Shown here piece after piece: positions 5,494 to 19,116 of a DNA stretch of 64,000 nucleotides. The stretch is from assembly GCA_963740085.1 (NCBI GenBank), contig CAVUCU010000001.1:1248001-1312000 (forward strand), read 5' to 3'. The position numbers were made by a program, and so were the translations under genes. How positions within the stretch are numbered: position 1 is the first letter of the stretch; the number at the start of each line of letters is the position of its first letter. This stretch comes from Nitrospirota bacterium. Lineage in GTDB: Bacteria > Nitrospirota > UBA9217. The notes beneath the pieces are model-generated. The model searched no databases. It worked only from the letters and a program-made list of their open reading frames with translations, and had not been told where the DNA came from.

Positions 5494-6831
5494 TTACAAA
5501 ACCGCTGTGGAAAGCGGGCTTGCCTTACTGCCGGTCCCCATCTTGAAATTAAAGATACCCTTAAGATGATACTCTGGCGGTGGGACCAGTGTTGAATCAT
5601 TGTCGGTTAATGTAATATCAAAATCACCAGTTGCCTCGGTTGCCGTTGAACCAGGTGAAAAGGAAATGGTGCCCTGACTCACTTTTTTCAGCGTGGATCT
5701 CTCTCCATTGAAGACAAGGAATATACCGGGGAATTTCTCGTACTGAGAATTGTCTTCAATGGCAAACGTTTTGCCACCGATGCTCGGCATGACACCGTTG
5801 TCCGATTTCTGAATGTCGATCCTGATGACGGTCCTGAAATTTTCATCCCAGACATTTTCCGCAACATTGGCCTGTATTGACCAATACGCATCATTGTTCG
5901 TTGAATAATAGAAATTTGGCTTTACAAGCCCATACTCATCATCAGTGACCGTTAAGTAGTTGATATGGGCCAGATTCTGGTCGACAGTTGCGGCAGTTAT
6001 TGCCGAACTGGTTCCGGTTGTTTCACTTGCCGTTGTACTGCCGGATGAGGCCTGACTGCTTCCGCCTCCGCTGCCGCATGCTGCCAGGAGCGCGACCAGC
6101 ACCGCGGTCATGAGCATCTGTTGAAGGTGTATTCCGTGTTTTATGTGATGGGGCTTGGCATACCCTTCTTCAATGAGCACCTCACCAAGCTTTTTCCGGG
6201 ACCCGGTCTGTTTGAGGAGAGCATCATCAAGTTGTCTGCGCGAGATAGTGCCTGAAGAGACCAGTATCTCCCCTAGCTTAAGCGGGCCGGGCACCGGTTT
6301 GGCATTGCCCTGGTTCTGTTGAAAATCGAGGACGCCGTACAGCTCTCGTTTCGTTAACAGGCCCTGGCGAACCAGAACCTCGCCGAGCTTCTCGCCGCTT
6401 CTCTTTTGATCGGAAATCGCGCGCTCAAGTTGTTCGCTCGTGATTCGTCCTGCCTGAACGAGCAGGTCGCCCAGCAGTCGGCGAACGCCCGCGGCAATCT
6501 TGACCGCGTCCTCGACGCGGTCAAGATGTTCCTGCACAGAAAGTGCTACCTTGATATCCGCAGGATCAATAATATTCATCCTGACCAGTACCTGACCAAG
6601 AAGTTCATTGGTTTTCTTTTGTTCCTCCAACGCGGCTTCGACGTTTTGCCGGGGTAGAAATCCGCCATCAATCAGGATCTGTCCGATGAAGCGCTTATTT
6701 TGTTTTTGTTTCAGCATAGGTAGCTCCTTTGCGTTGCTTACAGCCGCGCTTTGCTTCTTGTACGGAGATTCCGCCATCTTCGTGCCGCTAAAACGTCTGT
6801 CTGCGCGATCTCCATTTTCAGAGTATATCAT
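5494..6831 (-). CDS. Multi-MshEN (c-di-GMP-binding motif) protein fused to an internal lipoprotein signal and an extracytoplasmic domain
   Basis: Six xLGxxLxxxGxxxxxxLxxALxxQ-like repeats, then MLMTAVLVALLAA-C-GSGGG and a Ser/Thr linker. Alternative start 6717 has an AAGGAG RBS. Confidence 0.75.
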   Translation of the reverse strand: MIYSENGDRADRRFSGTKMAESPYKKQSAAVSNAKELPMLKQKQNKRFIGQILIDGGFLPRQNVEAALEEQKKTNELLGQVLVRMNIIDPADIKVALSVQEHLDRVEDAVKIAAGVRRLLGDLLVQAGRITSEQLERAISDQKRSGEKLGEVLVRQGLLTKRELYGVLDFQQNQGNAKPVPGPLKLGEILVSSGTISRRQLDDALLKQTGSRKKLGEVLIEEGYAKPHHIKHGIHLQQMLMTAVLVALLAACGSGGGSSQASSGSTTASETTGTSSAITAATVDQNLAHINYLTVTDDEYGLVKPNFYYSTNNDAYWSIQANVAENVWDENFRTVIRIDIQKSDNGVMPSIGGKTFAIEDNSQYEKFPGIFLVFNGERSTLKKVSQGTISFSPGSTATEATGDFDITLTDNDSTLVPPPEYHLKGIFNFKMGTGSKASPLSTAVL

Positions 6832-6860: not shown

Positions 6861-9800
6861 TCACTGGCCGCTGAACCACTTCACGGCGTCGCGGACGCTC
6901 ACTTGGTCAAACTTCATTCTCATCTTGACAAACGGCCCCTCGCTGGTGAAATCAGCCTTCGAGAAATCGCGGTCTTTAAAACCATTGAAATTGTATCCCA
7001 CACTTATCCAGAGGTTCCTGCCGGCGTTGAACCCGACCGATGCGCCGGTCCCGTATTTTTCCTGGCGCAGGCTTAGGGAGTGGAGCCGCATGCCGCGGAG
7101 ACCAATATCCCACTTCTTCGTGACATCGAAACGGCCCTCCAGCCCGACCAGGTCAGTGTATCCCCGATAATCGTTCTCATCGATCCGTTCCTGGACGTAT
7201 TTTGAAGCGTACTGCAAAGAAACCTGGGTCCTGATAGTCGTCTTGATGTTCGCAACAAGGTTGTTGACAAAGCGCTTGTTGTCGTCGTAGGTTGTTATCC
7301 CTCCATGCTGCTCTGACTGTATCAGATCCAGCCGGTCCAGGATGATGACGCGGGTGTCGAAGGGGCGGTGCACAAGGCTCAGACGCAGATCGCTACTGGC
7401 TTTCTCCTCCCCGGCAAGGATGTTGCTCCGGAACGTCTGCAGTCCCAGCGCAAGAGCGAGTCCCTCCCGCACCTCGCCGTTCGCACCCATGAACAAACCG
7501 AACTTGCGTTCGGAATCTGAATCGCGGTTTTCCACCCTCGCGGTCCATGACCATTTTTCCTGACGATATCCTACGCCAAGAGAAGTCGCTGTAAAGTCCT
7601 CGCTGCTCCCCGATGCGGGAGGAACGTTGGTGTTGACAGAATAGGTACCCGTGTTATGCAGCGTCTGGCTTCGATCCAGACCGCCATCCACGCTCCACTG
7701 CTTCGTGATCTGCCAGGACTGCTTCAGTCCAGTGGTGGAGAAAAGCCGCACGCCGTTCTCGGTCGACTGCTGTTCCATGGAGGACCCGATCTGGCCGCCG
7801 GTCCACGGCGATGTCCTGATCCCGATGCGCGTGGTCTCGGTGTCTATCGTGGAACCATTCGTCCACTCCTGGTCGGCGAAGAACGTTGATTTCTCATTGA
7901 GCTTGTAGTCAGCCCCGACGGTCGTCCTCGTCGGGAAATCGACGTTGTTGTTCGCTCCGATGGACTGATCGCGACTGATCCGGACCGCAGTCTTGTCGGT
8001 CACCTGGGCCCTTATGCCGGAGAAGAGCTGGTCGGACCGTTGCGTCTCGCCGAAGCTCTGTGTCCCAGCAGTGCTCAGGGTGTCATCAGCCTGGCGCAAA
8101 CCCGCCGTCACCGTATACCGTCCCGCAGTGTAATTGCTTCGCACCTCGGCCATGTCGCGCACCGCGCCGGTGGATAAATTGTTCTGCTCGAACACCTCTC
8201 CGCCAATGGTCCACAGTTTGTTGATCCGATAATTGAGGTCCGCTCCGATCTTCCGGGTGCCAGTCTCGCTGCCACTCTGCTGACCAAGCCCGAACCCGCC
8301 TTGCTGTTCCCGAACGTAAGCCTTACCCTCAGCTTTTTCCGAACGGTGCTGCAACTCCGCGAGAAATGCGTCACCTTGGCTCGTGACGCCCGCCAGGTCC
8401 GTCTTTGTCGTGGCGGCCTCCGCCCGGAGCAGGTCATACTCACCGAGCTTGACCTTCGCATCGACCCCTTCGAGGTTGCCCGATCCTCCCACCTGGCCCT
8501 CATGAACGTGGGAGGCGCCGACCTCTAAGCGGCTGTCGAGGAACCGCGCGGCAGCGCGGCCGCCATAGTTGTATTTCGCATCCTCGTCGTCAAAAGATTC
8601 ATATTCCGCAACAATGAAAATTGGATTGAAATTCCCGTCACGGCTGTATACCGGCATCTTGAAGAAAATGGTACCGGCATCGTAGTCGATAGTGTAGTCC
8701 AGGTTGTTTGTCAGCCGCTGGCTCGAAAGAATGACCTCGCTCTTGAACCGGTCCCGGGTCTCGATCGTGATCGTTTCTGAATTGAGCACGATATTCTTCC
8801 GTGACAGGTGGTAAAGTCCCGAGGTACCGTCGCCAGAGTACTCGTCCCGCACGTGGGCCTGGTTTGTATCCGCCAGAAAAACCGTGTATTCGTAATCCTT
8901 GGTCTTCATCTCCGACTTGAACCCGGTGAAGTTCCGGTTGTACCGTGACAGCTCGGTGATGGAAAGACCAGCATTAAAATCACCGAATAGGGCATAGAAC
9001 TGGTCGCGCTCCAGTTTGATGTAGATGCGCTTAGCGCTCGCCGCATCGTTGCCCTGAAGCGTACCATCGCCGTACAGGGTGTAGTACTTGTTCGGATCGA
9101 TGGTCTGATACAGGCTCGGCTGGTCAGTGCTGTCTGTTTTTTTACTGTCATAGGCCAGCGTGAGAAGCCACTCTCCCTTGATCCTGCCCTTGGCATAGAA
9201 GGCCAGGCGGTCCTCTTCGTAGAACTTGTCATCGCCTCCACCAGAAGTGAAGGTCTCCATGTTGCCCTTTACGGTATCGTATCCCACCGTGCCTTCGGCA
9301 AGGCCGACGAGGACCCAGTCCCGGTCCCCGGGTTTCAGCCACGTGCGGATTTCCTCAAATCGTTCAGCGTCAAGTTGCACACGAACAATCGCTTCTCCTG
9401 TCTGCGTTGTCGGAACAAGCTCGATCATCGCCACGCCGTCCTCGCCGACAAGATACCGGTATCTATCAGTATTCAGTGCAATGAGCGGCGATTGTTGAAG
9501 CTTATCAGCGCTCTGCTTGGGGATATACGGCGGATCAAGAAAATAATCGGCCCGCACTCCCTCCCTGGCGGGATGTCCATCCTTATCCAAGAGTTGTATG
9601 GCAAGAATTATGGGGGTTTTGCCATCCGCAATGAGCTTCGATCTCTCGGGCAACAGTATAGCCTTTGCCGGCGGTCCTGAATAGTGTACGGTCCGCTGCA
9701 GCCGCTTGACCTCGAAATCGGCGCCATCAGAGAGAACGAGTTCGAATTTATTGTCTCCCTCCTGTAAATGTATCCCGCGCCAGAAGCTGATGGCCACAGT

Positions 9801-12800
9801 GCCGTCAGATTTTTTGATCATTCCTTCATAATGAAGGAGATCCACCGCGTCGCCATTCAAAAAGAGTTTCAGTTTCTGGCTCGGATCGTGCTTTATAGCA
9901 ATTCTCAGACTCGCAATAGCAGGGTGATAGCCATCAACAGGCCAGAGCCACTCCAACCCCGGCTCTGCCTTTTCAACCCAGGCGGCATCGTAGTCCGGCA
10001 TGGTCTTGCCGTCGCCGATAGGCGTCAGGGACTCTGATTGCGGGTTCTCTAGCCAGATCTCGCCCTCGGACAAGCCCGTAATTGAAACGGACTTCACGCC
10101 ACTCGTTTCTTTGTCGTTGCGTACATAGTCCCAAGCGGAATCCTTGCGAGTGTCGACTCTGAACTCAACACGGCGGTTCAGCGCCCGTCCCTCTGCGGTC
10201 TTATTGGTCGCAACCGGTTCGTCAGGTCCCTTCCCGACGATCATGATCTGATCCGGGGCGAGCCGGAGTGTCTCGGCAATGACCTTGGCGACCGTCCTGG
10301 CGCGGCCTCGCGACAGCACGTAATTATCCGGGAACTCCTTGCTTGCCCTTGGGCGAATACGGTTGGAATCGGTATGACCGGTAACGGTAATATGCTCGAT
10401 ATTTCTTGATTTCATTTGTTCAATGATCTTCGATATTTCTTTCTGATCGCTCGAAGACAGGTCCGCCTTCAGCGAGGCGAACTTGGGATGGAATATGGCA
10501 TCGGGTTCGCTCATCTGACGCTTTAATTTGTAGCGGACAAGGTTCGTGTCAGCCACGGGCGTCTTCGCTCCTTGTGCTGCCGGAGTGTCGAAAACCAGGA
10601 ACGACTTCGTGGGCAGGTTTCCCTCAGCGCCTTGCGCCGGCACTGTCGCAGAGAACATGAGGGAACCCTCCCACCCGGCAGGCCGATCGCCCAAACGGTA
10701 GGTCAGGACGCCGTCGCTGAGGCCAGGATCAGGGACGCTGCCGTCAGCCAGAAAGCTGCTTCCCGGTGAGTATGTTACGCCGTCCGGCATCATTACGATC
10801 AGTCGGAGGTTTCGTACGGAGACCGATCCCACATGCAGTTTGGCTGAATAGGCGATGGTGTACTGGCAGTTCGCGTCGGGGAGACTGCAATTCTCATTCA
10901 CGAACGGCACCATGGCCGTATAGTCGTTATGGTCTTTCGCGTCCGGCCTCGAAGTCCCGGTCTGGTTCGTGGCCAGGGAATTCGTCTTCACTTCGCCGAA
11001 GCAATGCTCGCCGAAGATACACGTTTGGGCTGTAGCAAGGGAAGCCTCCGGCTCCCCTGCATCAACATGGTTAATCAAATCGCTCCTGGTCGTGACCAGG
11101 GATGTCTGCAGCTCAAGGCCGACTTCGCCGGTCTGTTTCGCTTTCGGAGGACGGAGCGCCAGATGGAAATCGGCCCTCCACAAGGAACCACCTTGCAAAT
11201 CCACGAACTGCGAAAATGACCTGCCCGCGAAACGCGTGTTATCCTCGCACTGCGCGGGCTCGTATTCCTCGGGCACCGTGACGGTATCAAGCTGCACCAC
11301 ATGAGTCCCCGGGAGAACAGCCGCGAAATGATACATCCCATTCTTGTCGGTTATGACATAGGATCCGTCCTCAAGGAAGATACGGACCCCTGCAATACCG
11401 TGCCCGTCTTTACCGCAGCCTTCAAGGATCCGGCCGACAATGGTCGTCCTGCTCAGAAAGAGATCCTCGGTCACCAGGACCGTAGCCGTCGCAATGTTGG
11501 ATACCACGCCGGAGGAGCCGTTCGCCACAGCCGTGTTCAAGGCCTTTCCAAGGTTAGCGCCGGCGCCCACTTCGGCCACGTAGGTGATGTCCGCTTTTCC
11601 CGCTGCGATGAGATTGCCGACCGTAAAGGTGACGCTCCGGCCGTCCTCGGAGATGACAGGCTCGGTCGCGGGAACACTGTTCAGGCGCACTGACCCTTTC
11701 CGGTACCGGAAACCGGCCGGCAGCCGGTCAGTAATGGTCACCCCCGGCGCCGGTGCGCTCTCGTCGATGTTTTCCACCGTAAGTTGATAGGGAACAAAGT
11801 CACCAATTGCCGCCGAATCCTTGCCTGCGGATTTGATGAGATAGAGCCGGGTGCTCAACGGGTCAATGGGAATATCGATATGGATCGCCGGCCCGGCGTT
11901 CACCAGGAACTCCTCACTGCGCGAGCCGGGCTCGGCAATGGCAAAAGGGGCTCCCGGCAGGGCCTGCAAAACACGGGTCGCGACGTTCGAAGGAGACCGA
12001 AAGCCTGAGGGCGGCAGGACGTCAAGGCGATAGCGGCCCGGGCTGATAAAGGGGAACCGGTATCCGCCTGGTGACATGGAGTACGCCCTGCCACTGCTGT
12101 CCACTGCCGTGCCACCAGTGATGAGGTTGGACGGAAAAGTCGAGATGCCGTCATCACCGTATACGGTCGCGGGATTACCCGTAGCGGTGTTCACCAGGGT
12201 GACGATCGCCCCGTCGACCGGCTGACCAGTCGTGCTGTTAAACAAAACGCCATAGGGATCGACCAGCGCAGTCGTTGTGTGGGAATCCGTCGGGTCCGCC
12301 GGGTCCACGTAGAGCGCTGTAATATGCGAATCGTTCACGAGATTCAGAAGACCGTTGTTGTCAATCTTTTGATCGGAGCTGGATTGTATGACCCCCATAA
12401 AGACGCCGGTGTTGGGTCCAGTCTCGGTCAGCTTGAGCACTTCTGTGTCCCCGGTCTTGTCGTCATGAACTGTCACCACGACGGTTTCCGCGACCGCGGG
12501 ATCGTTATTCTGGTCGCCGTCAGTCAATCGGATGAAGACCGGCTCGCCGGTGTGATACTGCGTCGGCGAAATGAGCGACAGCGGCTTGGCCAGATCGAGC
12601 CTTGCGGACGATCCTGCCGGCATCGGCGCGTCAAGAGGAACAAACGGTCCGGCCAGGTTTCCGCTGGGGCTATAGGATGTTGAATGAACGACAACAGTCT
12701 GTGCGCCCAGCGCATCAGGCGCGTACTGGAGGAATTCTAAGACCGCGGTAGTCCGCTGGACCATGGACGTCACTGACGCCGCAGGAGACGTTACGGTCAC

Positions 12801-13046
12801 CGGACTTCCCGCAGGCCCGTTTGTATACGTCGCGGTTGCGACATTGGTGATGATGGTGCCGGATGGCGTGATGGACCAGCCGACGGATGAGAACAGGATG
12901 ATGAAAAGGAATGATAACAGAGAAATAACTAGAGAAGAAAAAATTGGGGCCGCTTCAGCGAACGGGCGCAACGCGACCGTGCCTTCATCCTCATGGGTGG
13001 AGGTACGGTCGATGTGCGCGTCATGTGTGCCTAAGCGGTCCCTCAT
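6861..13046 (-). CDS. Giant outer-membrane protein with DUF11 and OmpA-like domains and a predicted C-terminal beta-barrel; putative pilus anchor or usher
   Basis: Signal peptide; complete DUF11 domain (LIK...ITDRLP...LNTA); OmpA motif GHTDS...LSRGRA...NRRVEF; long C-terminal run of amphipathic beta-strands. Confidence 0.8.
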   Translation of the reverse strand: MRDRLGTHDAHIDRTSTHEDEGTVALRPFAEAAPIFSSLVISLLSFLFIILFSSVGWSITPSGTIITNVATATYTNGPAGSPVTVTSPAASVTSMVQRTTAVLEFLQYAPDALGAQTVVVHSTSYSPSGNLAGPFVPLDAPMPAGSSARLDLAKPLSLISPTQYHTGEPVFIRLTDGDQNNDPAVAETVVVTVHDDKTGDTEVLKLTETGPNTGVFMGVIQSSSDQKIDNNGLLNLVNDSHITALYVDPADPTDSHTTTALVDPYGVLFNSTTGQPVDGAIVTLVNTATGNPATVYGDDGISTFPSNLITGGTAVDSSGRAYSMSPGGYRFPFISPGRYRLDVLPPSGFRSPSNVATRVLQALPGAPFAIAEPGSRSEEFLVNAGPAIHIDIPIDPLSTRLYLIKSAGKDSAAIGDFVPYQLTVENIDESAPAPGVTITDRLPAGFRYRKGSVRLNSVPATEPVISEDGRSVTFTVGNLIAAGKADITYVAEVGAGANLGKALNTAVANGSSGVVSNIATATVLVTEDLFLSRTTIVGRILEGCGKDGHGIAGVRIFLEDGSYVITDKNGMYHFAAVLPGTHVVQLDTVTVPEEYEPAQCEDNTRFAGRSFSQFVDLQGGSLWRADFHLALRPPKAKQTGEVGLELQTSLVTTRSDLINHVDAGEPEASLATAQTCIFGEHCFGEVKTNSLATNQTGTSRPDAKDHNDYTAMVPFVNENCSLPDANCQYTIAYSAKLHVGSVSVRNLRLIVMMPDGVTYSPGSSFLADGSVPDPGLSDGVLTYRLGDRPAGWEGSLMFSATVPAQGAEGNLPTKSFLVFDTPAAQGAKTPVADTNLVRYKLKRQMSEPDAIFHPKFASLKADLSSSDQKEISKIIEQMKSRNIEHITVTGHTDSNRIRPRASKEFPDNYVLSRGRARTVAKVIAETLRLAPDQIMIVGKGPDEPVATNKTAEGRALNRRVEFRVDTRKDSAWDYVRNDKETSGVKSVSITGLSEGEIWLENPQSESLTPIGDGKTMPDYDAAWVEKAEPGLEWLWPVDGYHPAIASLRIAIKHDPSQKLKLFLNGDAVDLLHYEGMIKKSDGTVAISFWRGIHLQEGDNKFELVLSDGADFEVKRLQRTVHYSGPPAKAILLPERSKLIADGKTPIILAIQLLDKDGHPAREGVRADYFLDPPYIPKQSADKLQQSPLIALNTDRYRYLVGEDGVAMIELVPTTQTGEAIVRVQLDAERFEEIRTWLKPGDRDWVLVGLAEGTVGYDTVKGNMETFTSGGGDDKFYEEDRLAFYAKGRIKGEWLLTLAYDSKKTDSTDQPSLYQTIDPNKYYTLYGDGTLQGNDAASAKRIYIKLERDQFYALFGDFNAGLSITELSRYNRNFTGFKSEMKTKDYEYTVFLADTNQAHVRDEYSGDGTSGLYHLSRKNIVLNSETITIETRDRFKSEVILSSQRLTNNLDYTIDYDAGTIFFKMPVYSRDGNFNPIFIVAEYESFDDEDAKYNYGGRAAARFLDSRLEVGASHVHEGQVGGSGNLEGVDAKVKLGEYDLLRAEAATTKTDLAGVTSQGDAFLAELQHRSEKAEGKAYVREQQGGFGLGQQSGSETGTRKIGADLNYRINKLWTIGGEVFEQNNLSTGAVRDMAEVRSNYTAGRYTVTAGLRQADDTLSTAGTQSFGETQRSDQLFSGIRAQVTDKTAVRISRDQSIGANNNVDFPTRTTVGADYKLNEKSTFFADQEWTNGSTIDTETTRIGIRTSPWTGGQIGSSMEQQSTENGVRLFSTTGLKQSWQITKQWSVDGGLDRSQTLHNTGTYSVNTNVPPASGSSEDFTATSLGVGYRQEKWSWTARVENRDSDSERKFGLFMGANGEVREGLALALGLQTFRSNILAGEEKASSDLRLSLVHRPFDTRVIILDRLDLIQSEQHGGITTYDDNKRFVNNLVANIKTTIRTQVSLQYASKYVQERIDENDYRGYTDLVGLEGRFDVTKKWDIGLRGMRLHSLSLRQEKYGTGASVGFNAGRNLWISVGYNFNGFKDRDFSKADFTSEGPFVKMRMKFDQVSVRDAVKWFSGQ

Positions 13047-13099: not shown

Positions 13100-14200
13100 T
13101 TACTGGACAACAACCTGATACTTGATTACGGCGGAATTTCCTTGCGCGACCGTCAGGCCGGAAACCGTTACTATGTTTGTAGTAAAATCAGCGCCGTCAG
13201 CATCGCCGGTGTTCGTCTTGCAAACATTGTTCACTACGATACCGGACCCTCCGGCGCAAGGGTTGGAGGGGGCAACACCATCATCGTATTGGGTCCTGAA
13301 TGCGATATTTCCTGCCGAGATCATGGCATTGAGGTTGTCAGTAATTGCTACATTCGACGCATCAGCACCACCCGCGGCGTTTGTTACTGTCACGGTGTAC
13401 GTGATCACTGCTCCGGGTATCGCTTTGGGGCTCGCAAACAAGTTTACTGGATCCCAATACACCGTGGCCGTCTTGCTCACGGTCAAGCCCGCGGCAGTAA
13501 TGGTAAAGGTGCCACTTGCGGAGTGTTTCCCGTCACGCGCCACGTCGCTGGCAGCGCTCCCTGCTGCATCTCCGAATATTGTCATTACACAGATTGAGAT
13601 TGGCAGCCGTTTGTGTCCCGAGCTGTCTCATGTGGATGCGGTCAAGGTCCCCGCGTCTACGGCTGTCGCCAGAAGGTCGTAACCCGCGATTGAACCATTT
13701 GTCGCGGTTGCCGGTATATCACCGACGATCAGTACGGTAATGCTTGCGCCTGACGCGATGTCACCGAATGTGCCGGCAGTAGCGTACAGTGTATCGCCGG
13801 CGTCCCATTTGCCGTCATTGTTGTTATCGCGATAAATATTCGGAGTGGTCAACGTCCAGGTGTTCGTCGCCTTCGATACGGGTGACAGGGCAAAGCGCAT
13901 GGCCGTATTGCTCATATTCGAGACGAGGAACTGGATCGCCTGGAAGGTTGAACTCGGTGCGCTGGTCACATCGCTTTGTTTCGTAACAGTCAAATAGATC
14001 ACTCTGTCAACCACAAAGGTGACGGTGTTCCCCGGCACCGCGGTTTGCGGTACCGTGCCGACAGTATAATTCACTGTCGCCTGATTCGAGATACTGACTC
14101 CCGCGGCCGTATTCGCCGCCTGCGCGAACTGCGGGACCGCCACGGCAATCGCCACAAACAGCAGAATTGCCGCTATCTTATACATACTTTGCTTTATCAT
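13100..14200 (-). CDS. DUF11 secreted protein, putative major pilin; interrupted by an in-frame TGA at 13628-13630, probably a sequencing artefact
   Basis: ORFs 13628-14200 and 13100-13585 share a frame and together align end to end with paralog 14902-15936; strong AGGAGG RBS. Confidence 0.75.
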
Positions 14201-14386
14201 TGTTTCCTCCTAGTTTTTAATTAATTACGTTATTTAAATTGTGTTCCCTTTTTGTTTGCAGCCTGTTTATATCTCTTTTCACCTCCTAAGAATCATTCGC
14301 ATAGTGCACCTCCGCTCTTAGGTCCTTGAAAATCAGCATTTGTTCATCCATAATCTTATCCTCCAAATAAATAATTTAGAATGCGT

Positions 14387-14890
14387 CTATTTAATCCTTG
14401 CCTTGAATGAAACACTACCTGTACCACCAGCGGGGAGTGGCTTGGTCAGGGTCCATCTAATACCGGTGTAGTCTTCCGCCCCGGCCTGGCGCACCATTCC
14501 CTTCGCGTTTTTGACCATCAGTTTCTCCGGTGCGCTGTAGGTCTTCCCGCCGTCTGTTGAAAACTCGATGCGGGTGTTGCTCCCTTCTACGCTGTTGTCG
14601 AGATAGGTCATATTCTTGTCAATAGGATTCGTGATCACGACATCGGTGGCGGGCTGCTTGCCGGTGTTGGTATAGTGCGTCGTGAAAACCACCGTGTCTC
14701 CCGGCACCGTCGCCGCCGCTTTGGCGACATCGACCCGCTTAACGACCTTCTCGCCCTTTTCATTTCTTCCCGCAACCTCTACTTCCGCAACGGACTTGAG
14801 CGCTATGGCACTTTTCTGCTGTGTCCAAGCGGCCATCGGCGCCAGCAACACCAGCGCCAAAACTACCTGTAATATTCTTTGCATTATCAT
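14387..14890 (-). CDS. Single DUF11-like domain secreted protein; putative chaperone
   Basis: Signal peptide; PGDTVVFTTHYTNTG...VVITNPI...VSFKARIK. Confidence 0.7.
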   Translation of the reverse strand: MIMQRILQVVLALVLLAPMAAWTQQKSAIALKSVAEVEVAGRNEKGEKVVKRVDVAKAAATVPGDTVVFTTHYTNTGKQPATDVVITNPIDKNMTYLDNSVEGSNTRIEFSTDGGKTYSAPEKLMVKNAKGMVRQAGAEDYTGIRWTLTKPLPAGGTGSVSFKARIK

Positions 14891-14901: not shown

Positions 14902-15936
14902 TTATTTGATCTTAACTTCAAAAGTTATCGTTTGTATCGGCGACGCGCTCGTCAGATTTCCGAGCTTCACGGTCACAGTATTCGGTGTCGTCACCCCCAC
15001 GTCCCCGGCGTCGGTGTCGGCGATATCAGTAAGGGCTGCATTGTTCAGCCGGAGTGAATTGGCGATATACACCGTGTTCAACGGCAGCGGGTCGCTGATC
15101 ACCACGTTGTTCGCTGTGCCTCCCCCCGATGTGGCCGCAACAATCGCGTACCGGAGCGTCGCCCCCGGGAGGGGCAGGCCTCCGCCCCATTGGTCAAGTA
15201 TTGTAACGGTCTTGCTTAGGCTCACGTTCAATGCGGCAACGGATATTATGTTGAAAGCGCCGCTCGCCGAGTGCTTTCCGTCCCGCGCTCCGTCGCCGGC
15301 AACGCTTCCCGCGATGTCCAGGAACACCGTGTCGATACCCGATGTATTGGGCCCCGCGGTCTGCGTGGAAACATTCAAGGTTCCGGCATCGACCGCTGTC
15401 GCCACCAGGTCATATAGCGCTGATTGGCCGATCGTCAGACCCGCGGGCGCGTCCGCGACGATCAATACCGTGACCGATGAGTTTGATACAAGGTCCCCGA
15501 ACGTGCTTGCGTCGCTGTACAGGGTGTCTCCCGCGTCCCAGGTGCCGCTGTTGTTATTGTCTCGAAAGATTCGGACATTGTTCATGGTCCATGTGTTCGT
15601 GGCCTTCGATACGGCCGAGAAAGCGAAGCGCAGGGTCGTATTGCTCGTATTGGAGACGAGAAACGACAGGGCTACGTTGCTGGAGGTCGGCGCGGTATTC
15701 ACATCCGAGTTCTTGGTCACAACCATGTTGATCGCCCGGTCTACCATGAAGGAATTCCCGGCCGTCGCAGTATGGTTCACGCCGCCGCTGAAAAAACTGA
15801 CTGAGACGGTGTTTGTGATGACCATCCCGGCAGGTGTGCCCGCAGCCCGGGCATTACCCGCTGCAAAAAAGAACCCGGCAAGGAATACGATGATTCCCCA
15901 GCATGCCGCGTAATATATTTTTTTTCTGTTTTGCAT
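14902..15936 (-). CDS. DUF11 secreted protein; putative minor or adaptor pilin
   Basis: Signal peptide; mature N-terminus AGTPAGMVITNTV; C-terminal LSK...PGATLRY...ISDPLP. Confidence 0.75.
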   Translation of the reverse strand: MQNRKKIYYAACWGIIVFLAGFFFAAGNARAAGTPAGMVITNTVSVSFFSGGVNHTATAGNSFMVDRAINMVVTKNSDVNTAPTSSNVALSFLVSNTSNTTLRFAFSAVSKATNTWTMNNVRIFRDNNNSGTWDAGDTLYSDASTFGDLVSNSSVTVLIVADAPAGLTIGQSALYDLVATAVDAGTLNVSTQTAGPNTSGIDTVFLDIAGSVAGDGARDGKHSASGAFNIISVAALNVSLSKTVTILDQWGGGLPLPGATLRYAIVAATSGGGTANNVVISDPLPLNTVYIANSLRLNNAALTDIADTDAGDVGVTTPNTVTVKLGNLTSASPIQTITFEVKIK

Positions 15937-15990: not shown

Positions 15991-18900
15991 TTAGTTGATC
16001 GATACCTTAAACTTCACGGTAAAGCTTGCGCCGCCTCCGTTCAGCGTCCCGCTGGGTTTAATGCGCACCCCTTTTACGAGAGGATCGTAACCGATGGTCG
16101 TAGGGGGATAGACGTACGGCGGACCGCCGCCGGGTTGGTATGAATAGGAAACCGCGTTCGCATAGGTCCACGGCGTCGTCAGGCCGCAGCCACTGCACGA
16201 GAAGGTCACGGCGCTGCCGGCGGTATCAACGTACATGGTCATATTGGCAGGGATAACATCCGTGATGGCGATCGAGTCCGCGTCCGCCACGCCGCTGCCG
16301 TTGTTGATCACCTGTATGGTATATTGGACCTCCGCGCCGGGAATCGCCTTTGCGGACGCCGATACGCCGTTGATGGGATCAGAAATGACCGAAGACGATT
16401 TCACAACCATAAGAGACGGCAAAAGCGATACGTTGAACGTACCGACGCCTGTGTGAGAAACCGTGCCTTCGGTACCCTCCGGAGCCGTTACGGAAACGGT
16501 CCAGTTTCCGGAAGGCGCAGGCGCCGTGAGCGGGAAAGCGTATTCGAACGTTTTGGTCGCGACACCCGAGTCCGCGACCTGGGGCATGGCCACAGCGTTG
16601 ATAACGGTCACGTTGCCCGGGTCCTTGACGGTGATCATCGGCTGCGTCGTCGCGTTGTTGCTCGCGTTGATATCGAAGCTCCCGAAGGGGTCGCTCACGA
16701 CTGCCCGCAGGTAGACAGTGCCGGTGGTAAATGATGCGGGTATGGTCACTAAGGGATAGGCCGTGCTGTATGCAGTGACGCTGTTCACATTTATGACGGT
16801 CGCCGAAGGCAGATCGACATACGATCGGTTCCCGCCGTTTATCGGATACACCGTCAGGGCGCGACTGATGCCGGTGTTCGTAATGGTGAGGGTCCATTTG
16901 TTCCCCTGAGCGCAGGTCTGTGGCGGCGAGTAGGGCAAGTTGAACGTCTGAAGGTACACCGTACCTCCGGCGGCAAAGGCAATACTCTTCGTCTGAGTAA
17001 GGCTGATTGCTCCACAGGTGAGATTAACCCTTACGTTTCCGGTCCTGCCGTTTGTACAAGACATATAGAGGTTTACCGGAACATTATTTGAATTTGGATC
17101 GAGGGTCATGGGTAACTGCATAGCAACATCTTGTGCCCATATCTGAGATGAAGTTGCAGCGCCAATCGTGATAGTGCTGTTATTACCCGAGATGGATCGT
17201 GATATCGGCCCGGGCGCTCCTCCGCCTGCTCCATAGAGGTATAGCTGCTTGAGGCCGGTGACGGGGACCTGCGACTGGGAGACGGTGATCGCAGGCGCCG
17301 CTGGTGTGGCACCCGTCCCCGCGGGGTTCGTGATAGTGGCGGTGTTGTTGATAAGGGTACCAATTGCGGCCCCCCCTGCGATCGTCGTGGATACGACGAT
17401 TGCGGCGGTCCCGTTGGCAGGAACCAAGATGTTGGACGCCGTAAGCACTTGCCCCACGATAGTACATGTCGCACCCGCAGGACAACTTATGACCGAAAGA
17501 TTTGTCAGTGTCGCCTGGAACGTGTCCGTCACCGAGACACCGGAGACTGCTGCACCGCCGGTCTCGTTCAGCGTGATCGTATACGGTATAACGTCGCCCG
17601 GATTCTGGTCCCCACCGTTCGTATCCGTCCAAGTCTTTGTTGAGGTGGAGAGATTGGAGTTAACCGGAATGTTCACGGTAACGCTATCATTGTTGGAGTT
17701 GTAGTCCGTGATGGAACCCGGGATGACGAGGCTTGCGGTGTTGCTGAGCAGGCTGGGCGCCGGTGCGCTTACCGTACCCGTTATCGTATAGGTCACATAC
17801 CCGTACCGGGGAAGGTTGGCGGTGGTGTTGATGTTGTTCCCGCTCCCTGAGGCAGCGCCGCAGGTTGCACCTCCTGATCCCGCGCAGGTCCAGGCAACGC
17901 CGGTTATGGCCGCCGGCACGGTGTCTTGGATCCCGACTCCGGTCGCTGTCACGTTGTTGGGACCGGTATTACTTGCGATAACGGTATATCGGACAGTGTC
18001 CCCCGCTGACGCGGTCGTCGTCGAACCGCTCGTCACGTCCAAGAATGTCTTGGTGATGGCGAGGTCGATTGCGGTTGTCGTGTTCTGGTTGCTCACCAGG
18101 AGGTTGCGGATCTCATGGTAGTTCGTGGAGCCGCCGGTGCTGGCGGCGTAGCCGATCATGAGCTTCTGGGCTGTCGAGATCGCGGGGAGCGCCTGGTTCG
18201 TGATCATCTGCGTATAGACAAGCGGGGAGCCGTAGCCGAACGCAACCCAGACATTAGCGACCGGGTTTGGCGCCGGGCTGATCTGTATACGCACCTTGCG
18301 GTAGCTCACACCGGTCTGGGAAGGCCTGGGTGATCCGTTGTACCACAGTGAGCCGTTGTTGGCAGAGGTGGCTATCCAGGGATAAGAATTTGTGTTCGAC
18401 GTTTGTCCGATGGCGCCCCCGCCGAAACCGACGACGGAGCCGCGAATTGTCACGGTGTTGGGTCGTTGTGAAGTGCCATTGTAGCGTCCTTCACAGCCAT
18501 AGGCAAAGTTACCGAATTCATCGACGCCGATTCCCACATAGCCGCCGCTGATTCCCGGAACACTCGGGTTAACCGGACTGCACGCAGCAGTAGACAGTTT
18601 CTGTGCATAACCCAGGGAGCCGCCGAAGGCGCCTATGTTGAAGGGACTTGCCCCACCATCGAACAGGTAGACGCTATAGCCGTCTGCGCCGTTCCCGCCC
18701 CAAGTGGCGTAATCAAACTCGATCAGGAGCCCGGCGCTCAGGTCAAACGTGGTGGTGTTATAGGCAAAACCGGTCTGGTTACCTGTGGCGTTGGTCAGGC
18801 GCAGCCATCCCTGTCCTGCCGGATCAATGGCGCCATTTCCGGTCAGAACAGCGGAGCTGGGATTTCCGCCCAAGATCCAGCCCGTACTGTTCGTGTCGGT

Positions 18901-19116
18901 CATCGGCGCATTGATGATGATCGAGGCGGAGGCGTTTACGGCAAAACAGACCGCAATCACCGTTGCCAGGACGAATGAGCAAAGTATGGATCCAGACTGC
19001 CGGAAATAGGTATTCCTGCAAGGAGCTGAGACCTTTCCCTGTGGCAAAGCTTTCTTTGTTCCGATAAAGTTCATCTCACGTTGTCCCGAATAATCTCCCG
19101 CTGATCTTTTACTCAT
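15991..19116 (-). CDS. L-type lectin plus DUF11 repeat adhesin; putative pilus tip
   Basis: WLRLT...GADG...GGSLGY...GVDEFGNF...AASTGG legume-lectin-like motifs, followed by three DUF11 domains. Confidence 0.75.
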   Translation of the reverse strand: MSKRSAGDYSGQREMNFIGTKKALPQGKVSAPCRNTYFRQSGSILCSFVLATVIAVCFAVNASASIIINAPMTDTNSTGWILGGNPSSAVLTGNGAIDPAGQGWLRLTNATGNQTGFAYNTTTFDLSAGLLIEFDYATWGGNGADGYSVYLFDGGASPFNIGAFGGSLGYAQKLSTAACSPVNPSVPGISGGYVGIGVDEFGNFAYGCEGRYNGTSQRPNTVTIRGSVVGFGGGAIGQTSNTNSYPWIATSANNGSLWYNGSPRPSQTGVSYRKVRIQISPAPNPVANVWVAFGYGSPLVYTQMITNQALPAISTAQKLMIGYAASTGGSTNYHEIRNLLVSNQNTTTAIDLAITKTFLDVTSGSTTTASAGDTVRYTVIASNTGPNNVTATGVGIQDTVPAAITGVAWTCAGSGGATCGAASGSGNNINTTANLPRYGYVTYTITGTVSAPAPSLLSNTASLVIPGSITDYNSNNDSVTVNIPVNSNLSTSTKTWTDTNGGDQNPGDVIPYTITLNETGGAAVSGVSVTDTFQATLTNLSVISCPAGATCTIVGQVLTASNILVPANGTAAIVVSTTIAGGAAIGTLINNTATITNPAGTGATPAAPAITVSQSQVPVTGLKQLYLYGAGGGAPGPISRSISGNNSTITIGAATSSQIWAQDVAMQLPMTLDPNSNNVPVNLYMSCTNGRTGNVRVNLTCGAISLTQTKSIAFAAGGTVYLQTFNLPYSPPQTCAQGNKWTLTITNTGISRALTVYPINGGNRSYVDLPSATVINVNSVTAYSTAYPLVTIPASFTTGTVYLRAVVSDPFGSFDINASNNATTQPMITVKDPGNVTVINAVAMPQVADSGVATKTFEYAFPLTAPAPSGNWTVSVTAPEGTEGTVSHTGVGTFNVSLLPSLMVVKSSSVISDPINGVSASAKAIPGAEVQYTIQVINNGSGVADADSIAITDVIPANMTMYVDTAGSAVTFSCSGCGLTTPWTYANAVSYSYQPGGGPPYVYPPTTIGYDPLVKGVRIKPSGTLNGGGASFTVKFKVSIN

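Follow-up and report, generated by a model that had tools for sequence, protein, structure and literature searches.

The small secreted DUF11 protein encoded in the window, the whole 64,000-nt stretch of Nitrospirota DNA that was analyzed, looks like a reaction-dead acceptor that probably binds donor hairpins. We tentatively propose, as a reading that is quite possible though short of probable, that this protein copies the fibre subunits' Catcher-like C-terminal domain in a form that can only accept a strand and cannot form the isopeptide bond, and that it acts as a soluble periplasmic assembly factor or chaperone. The sequence-only reading of this DNA had already cast it as a candidate dedicated chaperone. 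That idea gained ground from the loss of the catalytic Asp across the family, from the fixed place of the gene in its operon and from the modelled groove; it lost ground to the live-site residues kept in ortholog family f3, and to a fibre cap or primer, which fits the same data. The positions of the relevant features are given in Table 1.

Table 1. Features of the fibre operon and of the small protein, in positions of the window
Feature	Position	Strand	Basis or remark
Small secreted acceptor-only DUF11/CLIPPER-like protein, 167 aa	14387..14890	(-)	ORF, Pfam and TIGRFAM matches, AF2 model
Signal peptide of the small protein, residues 1-23	14822..14890	(-)	Read from sequence and ortholog alignment
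First strand of the small protein, residues 27-39, SAIALKSVAEVEV	14774..14812	(-)	Register inferred
Codon AAT, Asn88, at the catalytic Asp position of DUF11/CLIPPER	14627..14629	(-)	Sequence and alignment
Pilin A, 344 aa, N-terminal donor hairpin and C-terminal acceptor domain with K242 and D282	14902..15936	(-)	
Donor hairpin of pilin A, residues 32-68, carries N42	15733..15843	(-)	
Tip protein of 1041 aa; N-terminal region weakly lectin-like, acceptor domain at the C-terminus, donor motif absent	15991..19116	(-)	
Pilin B, open frame disrupted by an in-frame TGA plus small indels	13100..14200	(-)	G033 ortholog intact, 365 aa
Anchor of 2061 aa; donor motif at the N-terminus, DUF11 and OmpA-like domains, modelled giant beta-barrel at the C-terminus	6861..13046	(-)	

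Five genes, encoding the tip protein, pilin A, the small protein, pilin B, and the anchor, were found on the same strand. A donor motif, GT.AGT.I.N.A.V.Y, follows directly after the signal peptides of the pilins and the anchor; it corresponds to the final DUF11 strand in its consensus form, the strand that in solved CLIPPER bears the Asn of the isopeptide bond. The isopeptide triad of CLIPPER consists of Lys715, the catalytic Asp748, and Asn806, and the CLIPPER paper also describes some DUF11 domains without the triad (PMC12617251). Among 22 aligned pilins, T34 of the motif was present in all and N42 in 19. The remaining three, which are pilin A orthologs (L040:11616-12653, L051:7391-8431, and L037:5934-7133), carry Ser in place of the donor Asn, so that those junctions could form no Lys-Asn isopeptide bond. 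The motif was also found in all 17 anchors, in 15 by pattern and in 2 by eye. The pilins and the tip protein, which contains three DUF11 stretches, end in a DUF11 domain that stops before the Asn strand; the match of pilin B covered profile positions 11-99 of 114. These end domains retain the Lys and the catalytic Asp. K242 and D282 were invariant in 22 of 22 pilins. These two residues, the donor Asn in 19 of 22 pilins, and the CLIPPER triad suggest a covalent lock between subunits, and from the sequences we infer a head-to-tail fibre, tip first and anchor last, that would be locked by isopeptide bonds. In such a fibre, the donor hairpin of each subunit would complete the acceptor domain of the previous subunit, and an isopeptide bond would lock the junction.

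The anchor also carries a CarboxypepD_reg domain. Its C-terminal 1012 aa (6861-9899, minus strand) matched no Pfam family. The AF2 model of this part was all-beta, with at least 32 long strands and a pLDDT of 77.4, and Foldseek matched it, with low TM-scores, to Deinococcus SlpA, T9SS SprA, MtrB, FimD, PapC, and LptD. With its barrel, its OmpA-like domain, and its donor motif, the modelled protein looks like anchor and usher in one chain. The resemblance to outer-membrane barrels, ushers among them, fits assembly at the periplasmic face, and the usher-like or larger size of the modelled barrel suggests that assembly proceeds from the periplasmic side.

Further observations were made around these genes. 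Directly downstream of the anchor (5494-6831, minus strand), a 445-aa protein is encoded that matches DUF4388 weakly and contains a lipobox-like segment, LLAACGSGGG; in G033, a 445-aa protein with the same Pfam match occupies the same place after the anchor, and this protein may belong to the fibre system. Pilin B of the window is stopped by the TGA after 190 codons, with local +2 and +1 nt indels at the same spot relative to G033, and a metagenome contig from run X1 (767 nt, depth about 5) omits 6 nt at 13590-13630, in the same pilin B region. The break may be strain variation or an assembly error. On another contig of the same genome, a 3093-aa open frame with DUF11-like stretches (G000:C4:292824-300955) lies near a 1251-aa frame that matches residues 151-507 of the anchor C-terminal half; this region may be a second, different surface-protein locus.

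The small gene starts 11 nt past the stop codon of the upstream gene, and a strong Shine-Dalgarno sequence, GGGGGAG, lies 5-7 nt 5' of its ATG. A promoter and terminator scan showed no terminator on its 3' side. The 186-nt spacer between the small gene and pilin B (14201-14386, minus strand) holds a possible 21-codon ORF, ATGGATGAACAA...TAG, behind a GGAGG-like site, which may be nothing. The small protein carries a Sec-type signal peptide, for which close orthologs carry a cleavage site of the AWA|QQKG type, and a lipobox Cys is absent.

The small protein scored 26.2 bits against Pfam DUF11 (PF01345; cut-off 24.6), with a match to profile positions 9-57 of 114 only, and 36.9 bits against TIGR01451 (cut-off 24). 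When it was aligned profile to profile with the C-terminal acceptor domains of the pilins (probability 98.2%), the alignment began at residue 56 and reached the C-terminal residue of each, and the small protein is thus truncated at the end-point of the pilin acceptors, before the Asn strand. It is an incomplete DUF11/CLIPPER domain, in which the late Asn-bearing strand is missing. The mature N-terminus, QQKSAIALK, is without the donor motif GT.AGT.I.N, so that the protein is acceptor-only, like the tip protein. These data upheld the sequence-only reading of a lone, truncated DUF11 domain in a 167-aa secreted protein with no donor strand. Its remark that the protein is charged and Lys-rich beside the pilins also stood: the mature protein (144 aa) has a pI of 9.55, 25% KRDE, and 10.4% Lys, compared with a pI of 4.3-4.6, about 10-11% KRDE, and 1.9-3.1% Lys in the pilins. 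The pilins and the tip protein together span a pI of 4.3-5.1 and 7-11% charged residues. A composition unlike that of any fibre part would speak in favour of a chaperone role.

The AF2 model of the small protein, built from a 38-row alignment, was a single all-beta domain of ten strands. Its mean pLDDT was 87.6, with values above 90 over most of the mature part and below 50 for residues 1-25. A Foldseek comparison of the model with the PDB gave no match with an E-value of 0.001 or less, and retrieved generic beta-sandwiches only (TTHA1873, CBM3, RrgB, and 9ifr, the last with a TM-score normalised to target of 0.54).

We analyzed the catalytic positions of the acceptor domains by alignment. The column of the catalytic Asp holds Asp in 43 of 43 acceptor domains of pilins and tip proteins, and Asn88 in the window small protein, which agrees with the earlier observation of VVITNPI in place of ITD or ISD. 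Across the small family (n = 80), position 88 was Asn in 66, Met in 7, Asp in 6, and Leu in 1 member, and all six Asp88 members are syntenic small genes. The sequence-only reading had also stated that the first strand lacks Lys, which held for the side that faces the groove. The inward positions 27, 29, 31, 33, 35, and 37 are S, I, L, S, A, and V, with no Lys, as assigned by parity in an inferred register. K32, in IALKSVAEV, is present nearby, three residues before the Lys position that had been named; K26 and K32 have the opposite parity and point away from the groove, by strand parity and in the complex model. An alignment that took K32 as the canonical Lys (K to K) was rejected: E36 would then enter the core, and L31, not K32, faces V46 of the donor. 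Within the family, position 35 was never Lys, position 37 was Val in 45 and Lys in 24 members, and position 32 was Lys in 44, Thr in 18, and Arg in 10. As aligned here, the canonical Lys and the catalytic Asp are both missing from the window protein. The Asp-to-Asn change and the Lys loss expected among homologs were therefore found in part, with Asp lost in 74 of 80 members and kept in 6, and with Lys37 in 24 of 80. The presence of Lys37 may count against a fully dead site, its side-chain geometry being read from parity only. Asn is nearly isosteric with Asp and is retained in both Nitrospirota and Proteobacteria, and thus looks selected rather than decayed; this retention points to selection for groove binding without reaction.

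The loss of the canonical residues would matter less if the small protein were an ordinary covalent subunit that forms a non-canonical bond, for example between K26 or K32 and the donor Asn, aided by E36/E38. We consider this very improbable. Position 32 holds Lys or Arg in 54 of 80 members, E38 on the first strand is 92% conserved, and K26 is conserved among close relatives, as such a bond would have it. However, the contact list agrees with strand parity in turning both lysines away from the groove, no acid substitutes for Asp88, and the 18 members with Thr at position 32 have no Lys there to react.

To model a complex, pilin A residues 32-75 (22-row alignment) were combined with small protein residues 24-167 (38-row alignment). 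The ipSAE of the complex was 0.81, 0.81, and 0.78, whereas the best of three controls reached 0.01. Of the solved complexes, 58 of 80 pass the ipSAE mark that was applied, as do 2 of 110 mismatched pairs; both counts are approximate here, since our own alignments were used. The runs shared at least 92% of contacts, and the partner pLDDT was at least 87. In the model, donor strand 40-51 was placed between strand A (27-35) and the N88 strand (81-89), the second donor strand (63-68) packed on one face of strand B, and L31 contacted the inward-facing V46 of the donor. The modelled arrangement is that of strand complementation. Modelling with a donor peptide, which had been suggested together with the chaperone idea, thus placed the pilin A hairpin in the groove, although likeness of fold may explain the result: the model may pass because the pair resembles the intact, solved CLIPPER fold, like two halves of a split domain. 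The complex model shows a groove that is compatible with a donor hairpin, which is not proof of binding in cells, and it makes non-covalent donor-strand binding by the small protein plausible.

A search of 5.8 billion proteins gave 64 relatives of the small protein, of 124-171 aa. Every precomputed Pfam domain set among these relatives includes DUF11 (PF01345), and four add DUF7619. In a profile search of 1.84 billion representatives, giant multi-DUF11 proteins dominated, and 12 of the 150 matches listed were shorter than 400 aa; the ESM Atlas gave only unnamed small DUF11 clusters. Three of these shorter proteins were inspected. P0173, a metagenomic protein of 319 aa, is a tandem of two small-family domains, with Pro at the residue-88 position in the first and Asp in the second. 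The N-terminal stretch of P0206 is duplicated, and in P0209 a response-regulator gene has apparently been merged with the small gene by the gene call.

The alignment of the family also revealed conserved parts of its own. A hairpin of residues 38-54, with E38 and G46 conserved, is specific to the family and is not found in the pilin acceptors. Also family-specific are an Asp-box-like FS.DGGKT[YF], in which S111, D113, and G115 are nearly invariant, and a conserved stretch with L124, G131, R134, A136, T142, and W146; both lie outside the modelled groove, and together (residues 106-146) they may form a second functional surface. These observations bear on the possibility that the small protein binds no donor strand at all and is a stand-alone Ig-like accessory whose docking partner would be the anchor barrel, peptidoglycan, or a glycan, which we regard as unlikely. 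The hairpin 38-54, the Asp-box, and the R134...W146 patch would offer a candidate surface, given that the best-conserved family-specific residues (S111/D113/G115, R134, A136, T142, and W146) are outside the groove. A sequence-profile search of the PDB gave only weak matches to sialidase Asp-box stretches, with E-values of 0.003 to 0.7, and to flagellar hook proteins, and the former would suit docking. Mean entropy was 1.48 for the groove residues and 1.68 for the other residues, so that the groove showed no significant excess of conservation (Mann-Whitney p = 0.12), which also suits docking. Against docking, the chain stops exactly short of the complementing strands, at the same point as in the pilin acceptors, an Ig domain short of two strands normally needs a partner, and the complex model was strong in comparison with its controls.

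The distribution and the neighbourhood of the small gene were also investigated. The gene is single-copy in the window's own genome, and it was found in 30 of 301 sampled Nitrospirota genomes at an E-value of 1e-10 or better. In 20-kb loci from 20 Nitrospirota genomes, the gene order was tip, pilin A, small, pilin B, anchor. Over these genomes and 3 proteobacterial MAG loci, the tip and pilin A genes were optional and the small, pilin, and anchor genes were constant, in loci that had been picked via the small gene itself. A reverse search with the C-terminal half of the anchor matched 54 of 301 Nitrospirota genomes, with about 37 near-full-length anchors as read from the match table. In six of six stretches fetched, anchors without a small-gene match sit at contig ends, and this search from the anchor found no assembled anchor locus without the small gene. 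The three proteobacterial MAG loci encode a pilin A of 337 aa, a small protein of about 160 aa, a pilin B of 372-387 aa, and, where the contig is long enough, an anchor of about 1950 aa. In one proteobacterial MAG (L055:4242-6623), a sigma-54 activator with a GAF domain is encoded directly upstream of pilin A, small, pilin B, and anchor. The gene neighbourhoods support the view that the small gene is a constant member of the operon in both phyla.

The same parts can be arranged as a fibre in which the small protein is a distal cap or primer, which is possible but in our view doubtful. It would be the first, acceptor-only unit, would take the donor hairpin of the first pilin, and would exit with the fibre and sit at its tip. 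The parts list is then complete without a chaperone, with an acceptor-only small protein, a pilin that is both donor and acceptor, and a donor-only anchor, and the complex model fits a cap equally well. No tip gene adjoins the operon in the three proteobacterial loci. Two of three f20/f3-type loci (L048 and L050) show only the small, pilin, and anchor genes, and in most minimal operons the small protein is the sole adjacent acceptor-only protein; next to this set, both L049 and L050 carry one more ORF, whose pilin-like match is weak. In addition, the f3 tip proteins end in an acceptor domain that the small family resembles. Since a cap bears no load, the covalent lock could have become dispensable in most lineages. 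On the other hand, a cap that carries no adhesin brings no evident advantage, and still the gene persists even where a tip adhesin is present; Asn88 is specifically conserved and is not drifting; and the charged, basic composition of the small protein differs from that of every fibre part.

The orthologs with a live site bear on both readings. The sequence-only reading had held that homologs keeping Lys and Asp would speak against it, and part of the family has this character: Asp88 is kept by five of six small orthologs in family f3, and four of six also carry a Lys of inward parity at position 37. Outside f3, the syntenic small orthologs L041 and L052 also keep Asp88. The f3 proteins look as a covalent cap would, and may ligate. 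They weaken a pure chaperone reading, because a chaperone whose site is live would trap its client, and if the Asp-keeping orthologs are reactive, the role shared by the whole family cannot be that of a reversible chaperone. In favour of the chaperone, none of the operon variants lacks the small gene, those that encode a tip adhesin included.

For the small protein as an assembly factor, the following course may be envisaged. With Asn in place of Asp and with no Lys, it would take a donor hairpin only reversibly, and it would thereby mask the donor hairpins of the pilins or of the anchor in the periplasm. Insertion of the anchor hairpin should end fibre growth, and masking would stop premature covalent polymerisation or termination. 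At the outer-membrane barrel, the hairpin would then be handed to an acceptor that is live, and the bond formed there would make the exchange irreversible. The periplasmic location of the small protein, the reversibility of its binding, and the hand-over are proposals. A reversible cap alone only delays an irreversible reaction and cannot prevent it. A more specific version is also conceivable, although we would not rate it as likely: a natural dead Catcher would be the first strand-accepting pilus chaperone, and it would mask donor hairpins, notably the terminator of the anchor, and so time a single-turnover, sortase-free covalent fibre, or limit its length, in bacteria with two membranes. 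In this variant, the terminator hairpin of the anchor, at high local concentration beside its own barrel, would be the one that is masked.

If the proposal is true, two-membrane bacteria build covalent, SpyTag/SpyCatcher-like fibres without sortase, under the control of a reaction-dead copy of the acceptor, and pilus assembly would follow a new logic, with a factor that takes the strand of a subunit instead of lending its own. The proposal would also account for a widespread family of stand-alone DUF11 proteins of roughly 160 aa that is currently without a function, and it would provide natural, orthogonal pairs of live and dead Catchers and Tags for protein engineering. Even as a cap, the small protein would mark the starting unit of an undescribed fibre system. 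A search of openly available article texts gave no description of split DUF11 pilins, of this operon, or of the small family.

Chaperones of the PapD/FimC type consist of two Ig-like domains and donate their G1 strand. The small protein had no match to a Pfam chaperone family and, unlike PapD/FimC, is a single domain in its model. A strand is likewise donated by ElrE, the chaperone of the Enterococcus Elr pilus (preprint 10.64898/2026.10.17.759780), and by TapA (PMC10151520). All of these are small, operon-encoded, secreted factors, and the small protein would likewise control donor-strand exchange, here beside a large outer-membrane barrel. The direction differs: PapD/FimC, ElrE, and TapA lend a strand to the groove of a subunit, whereas the small protein would accept the strand of the subunit.

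The small protein is of the same family as CLIPPER (PDB 9IFR) by HMM and has the same beta-sandwich, and its Asn88 strand corresponds to the Asp748 strand of CLIPPER (PMC12617251). However, CLIPPER is a complete domain with the Lys-Asp-Asn triad in one chain, whereas the small protein stands alone without the Asn strand, the Asp, and the Lys. By sequence it belongs to DUF11/CLIPPER, and it lacks the complete fold and the triad. SpyCatcher, too, lacks part of its Ig-like fold and recognises the strand that complements it, and the change of its catalytic Glu to Gln (E77Q), an acid-to-amide exchange, yields an inactive Catcher (PMC6539128). Viewed as a Catcher, the small protein is without the reactive Lys and the catalytic acid in its groove. 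SpyCatcher was engineered by splitting CnaB2, whereas here both the split and the dead variant are natural, CnaA-like, and encoded in one operon with live partners.

The nearest functional precedents are the archaeal threads and the exchange-and-lock fibres of BsaA with BsaB. The thread filaments of Sulfolobus combine donor-strand complementation with isopeptide bonds between subunits (PMC9715654). They are archaeal and made of a different subunit family, and the available part of that report does not mention a dead acceptor partner. The matrix fibres of Clostridium perfringens, BsaA/BsaB, are built by 'donor-strand exchange and lock', with an N-terminal strand and an intermolecular isopeptide bond (PMC11580942). 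These proteins have a TasA-like fold, are Gram-positive with no outer-membrane anchor, and are unrelated in sequence to DUF11. BsaB is a neighbouring paralog without the triad that is not covalently built into long polymers, and it is described without a known role (PMC11580942); the small protein, as proposed here, would similarly be a triad-less relative encoded beside the live subunits of a covalent fibre.
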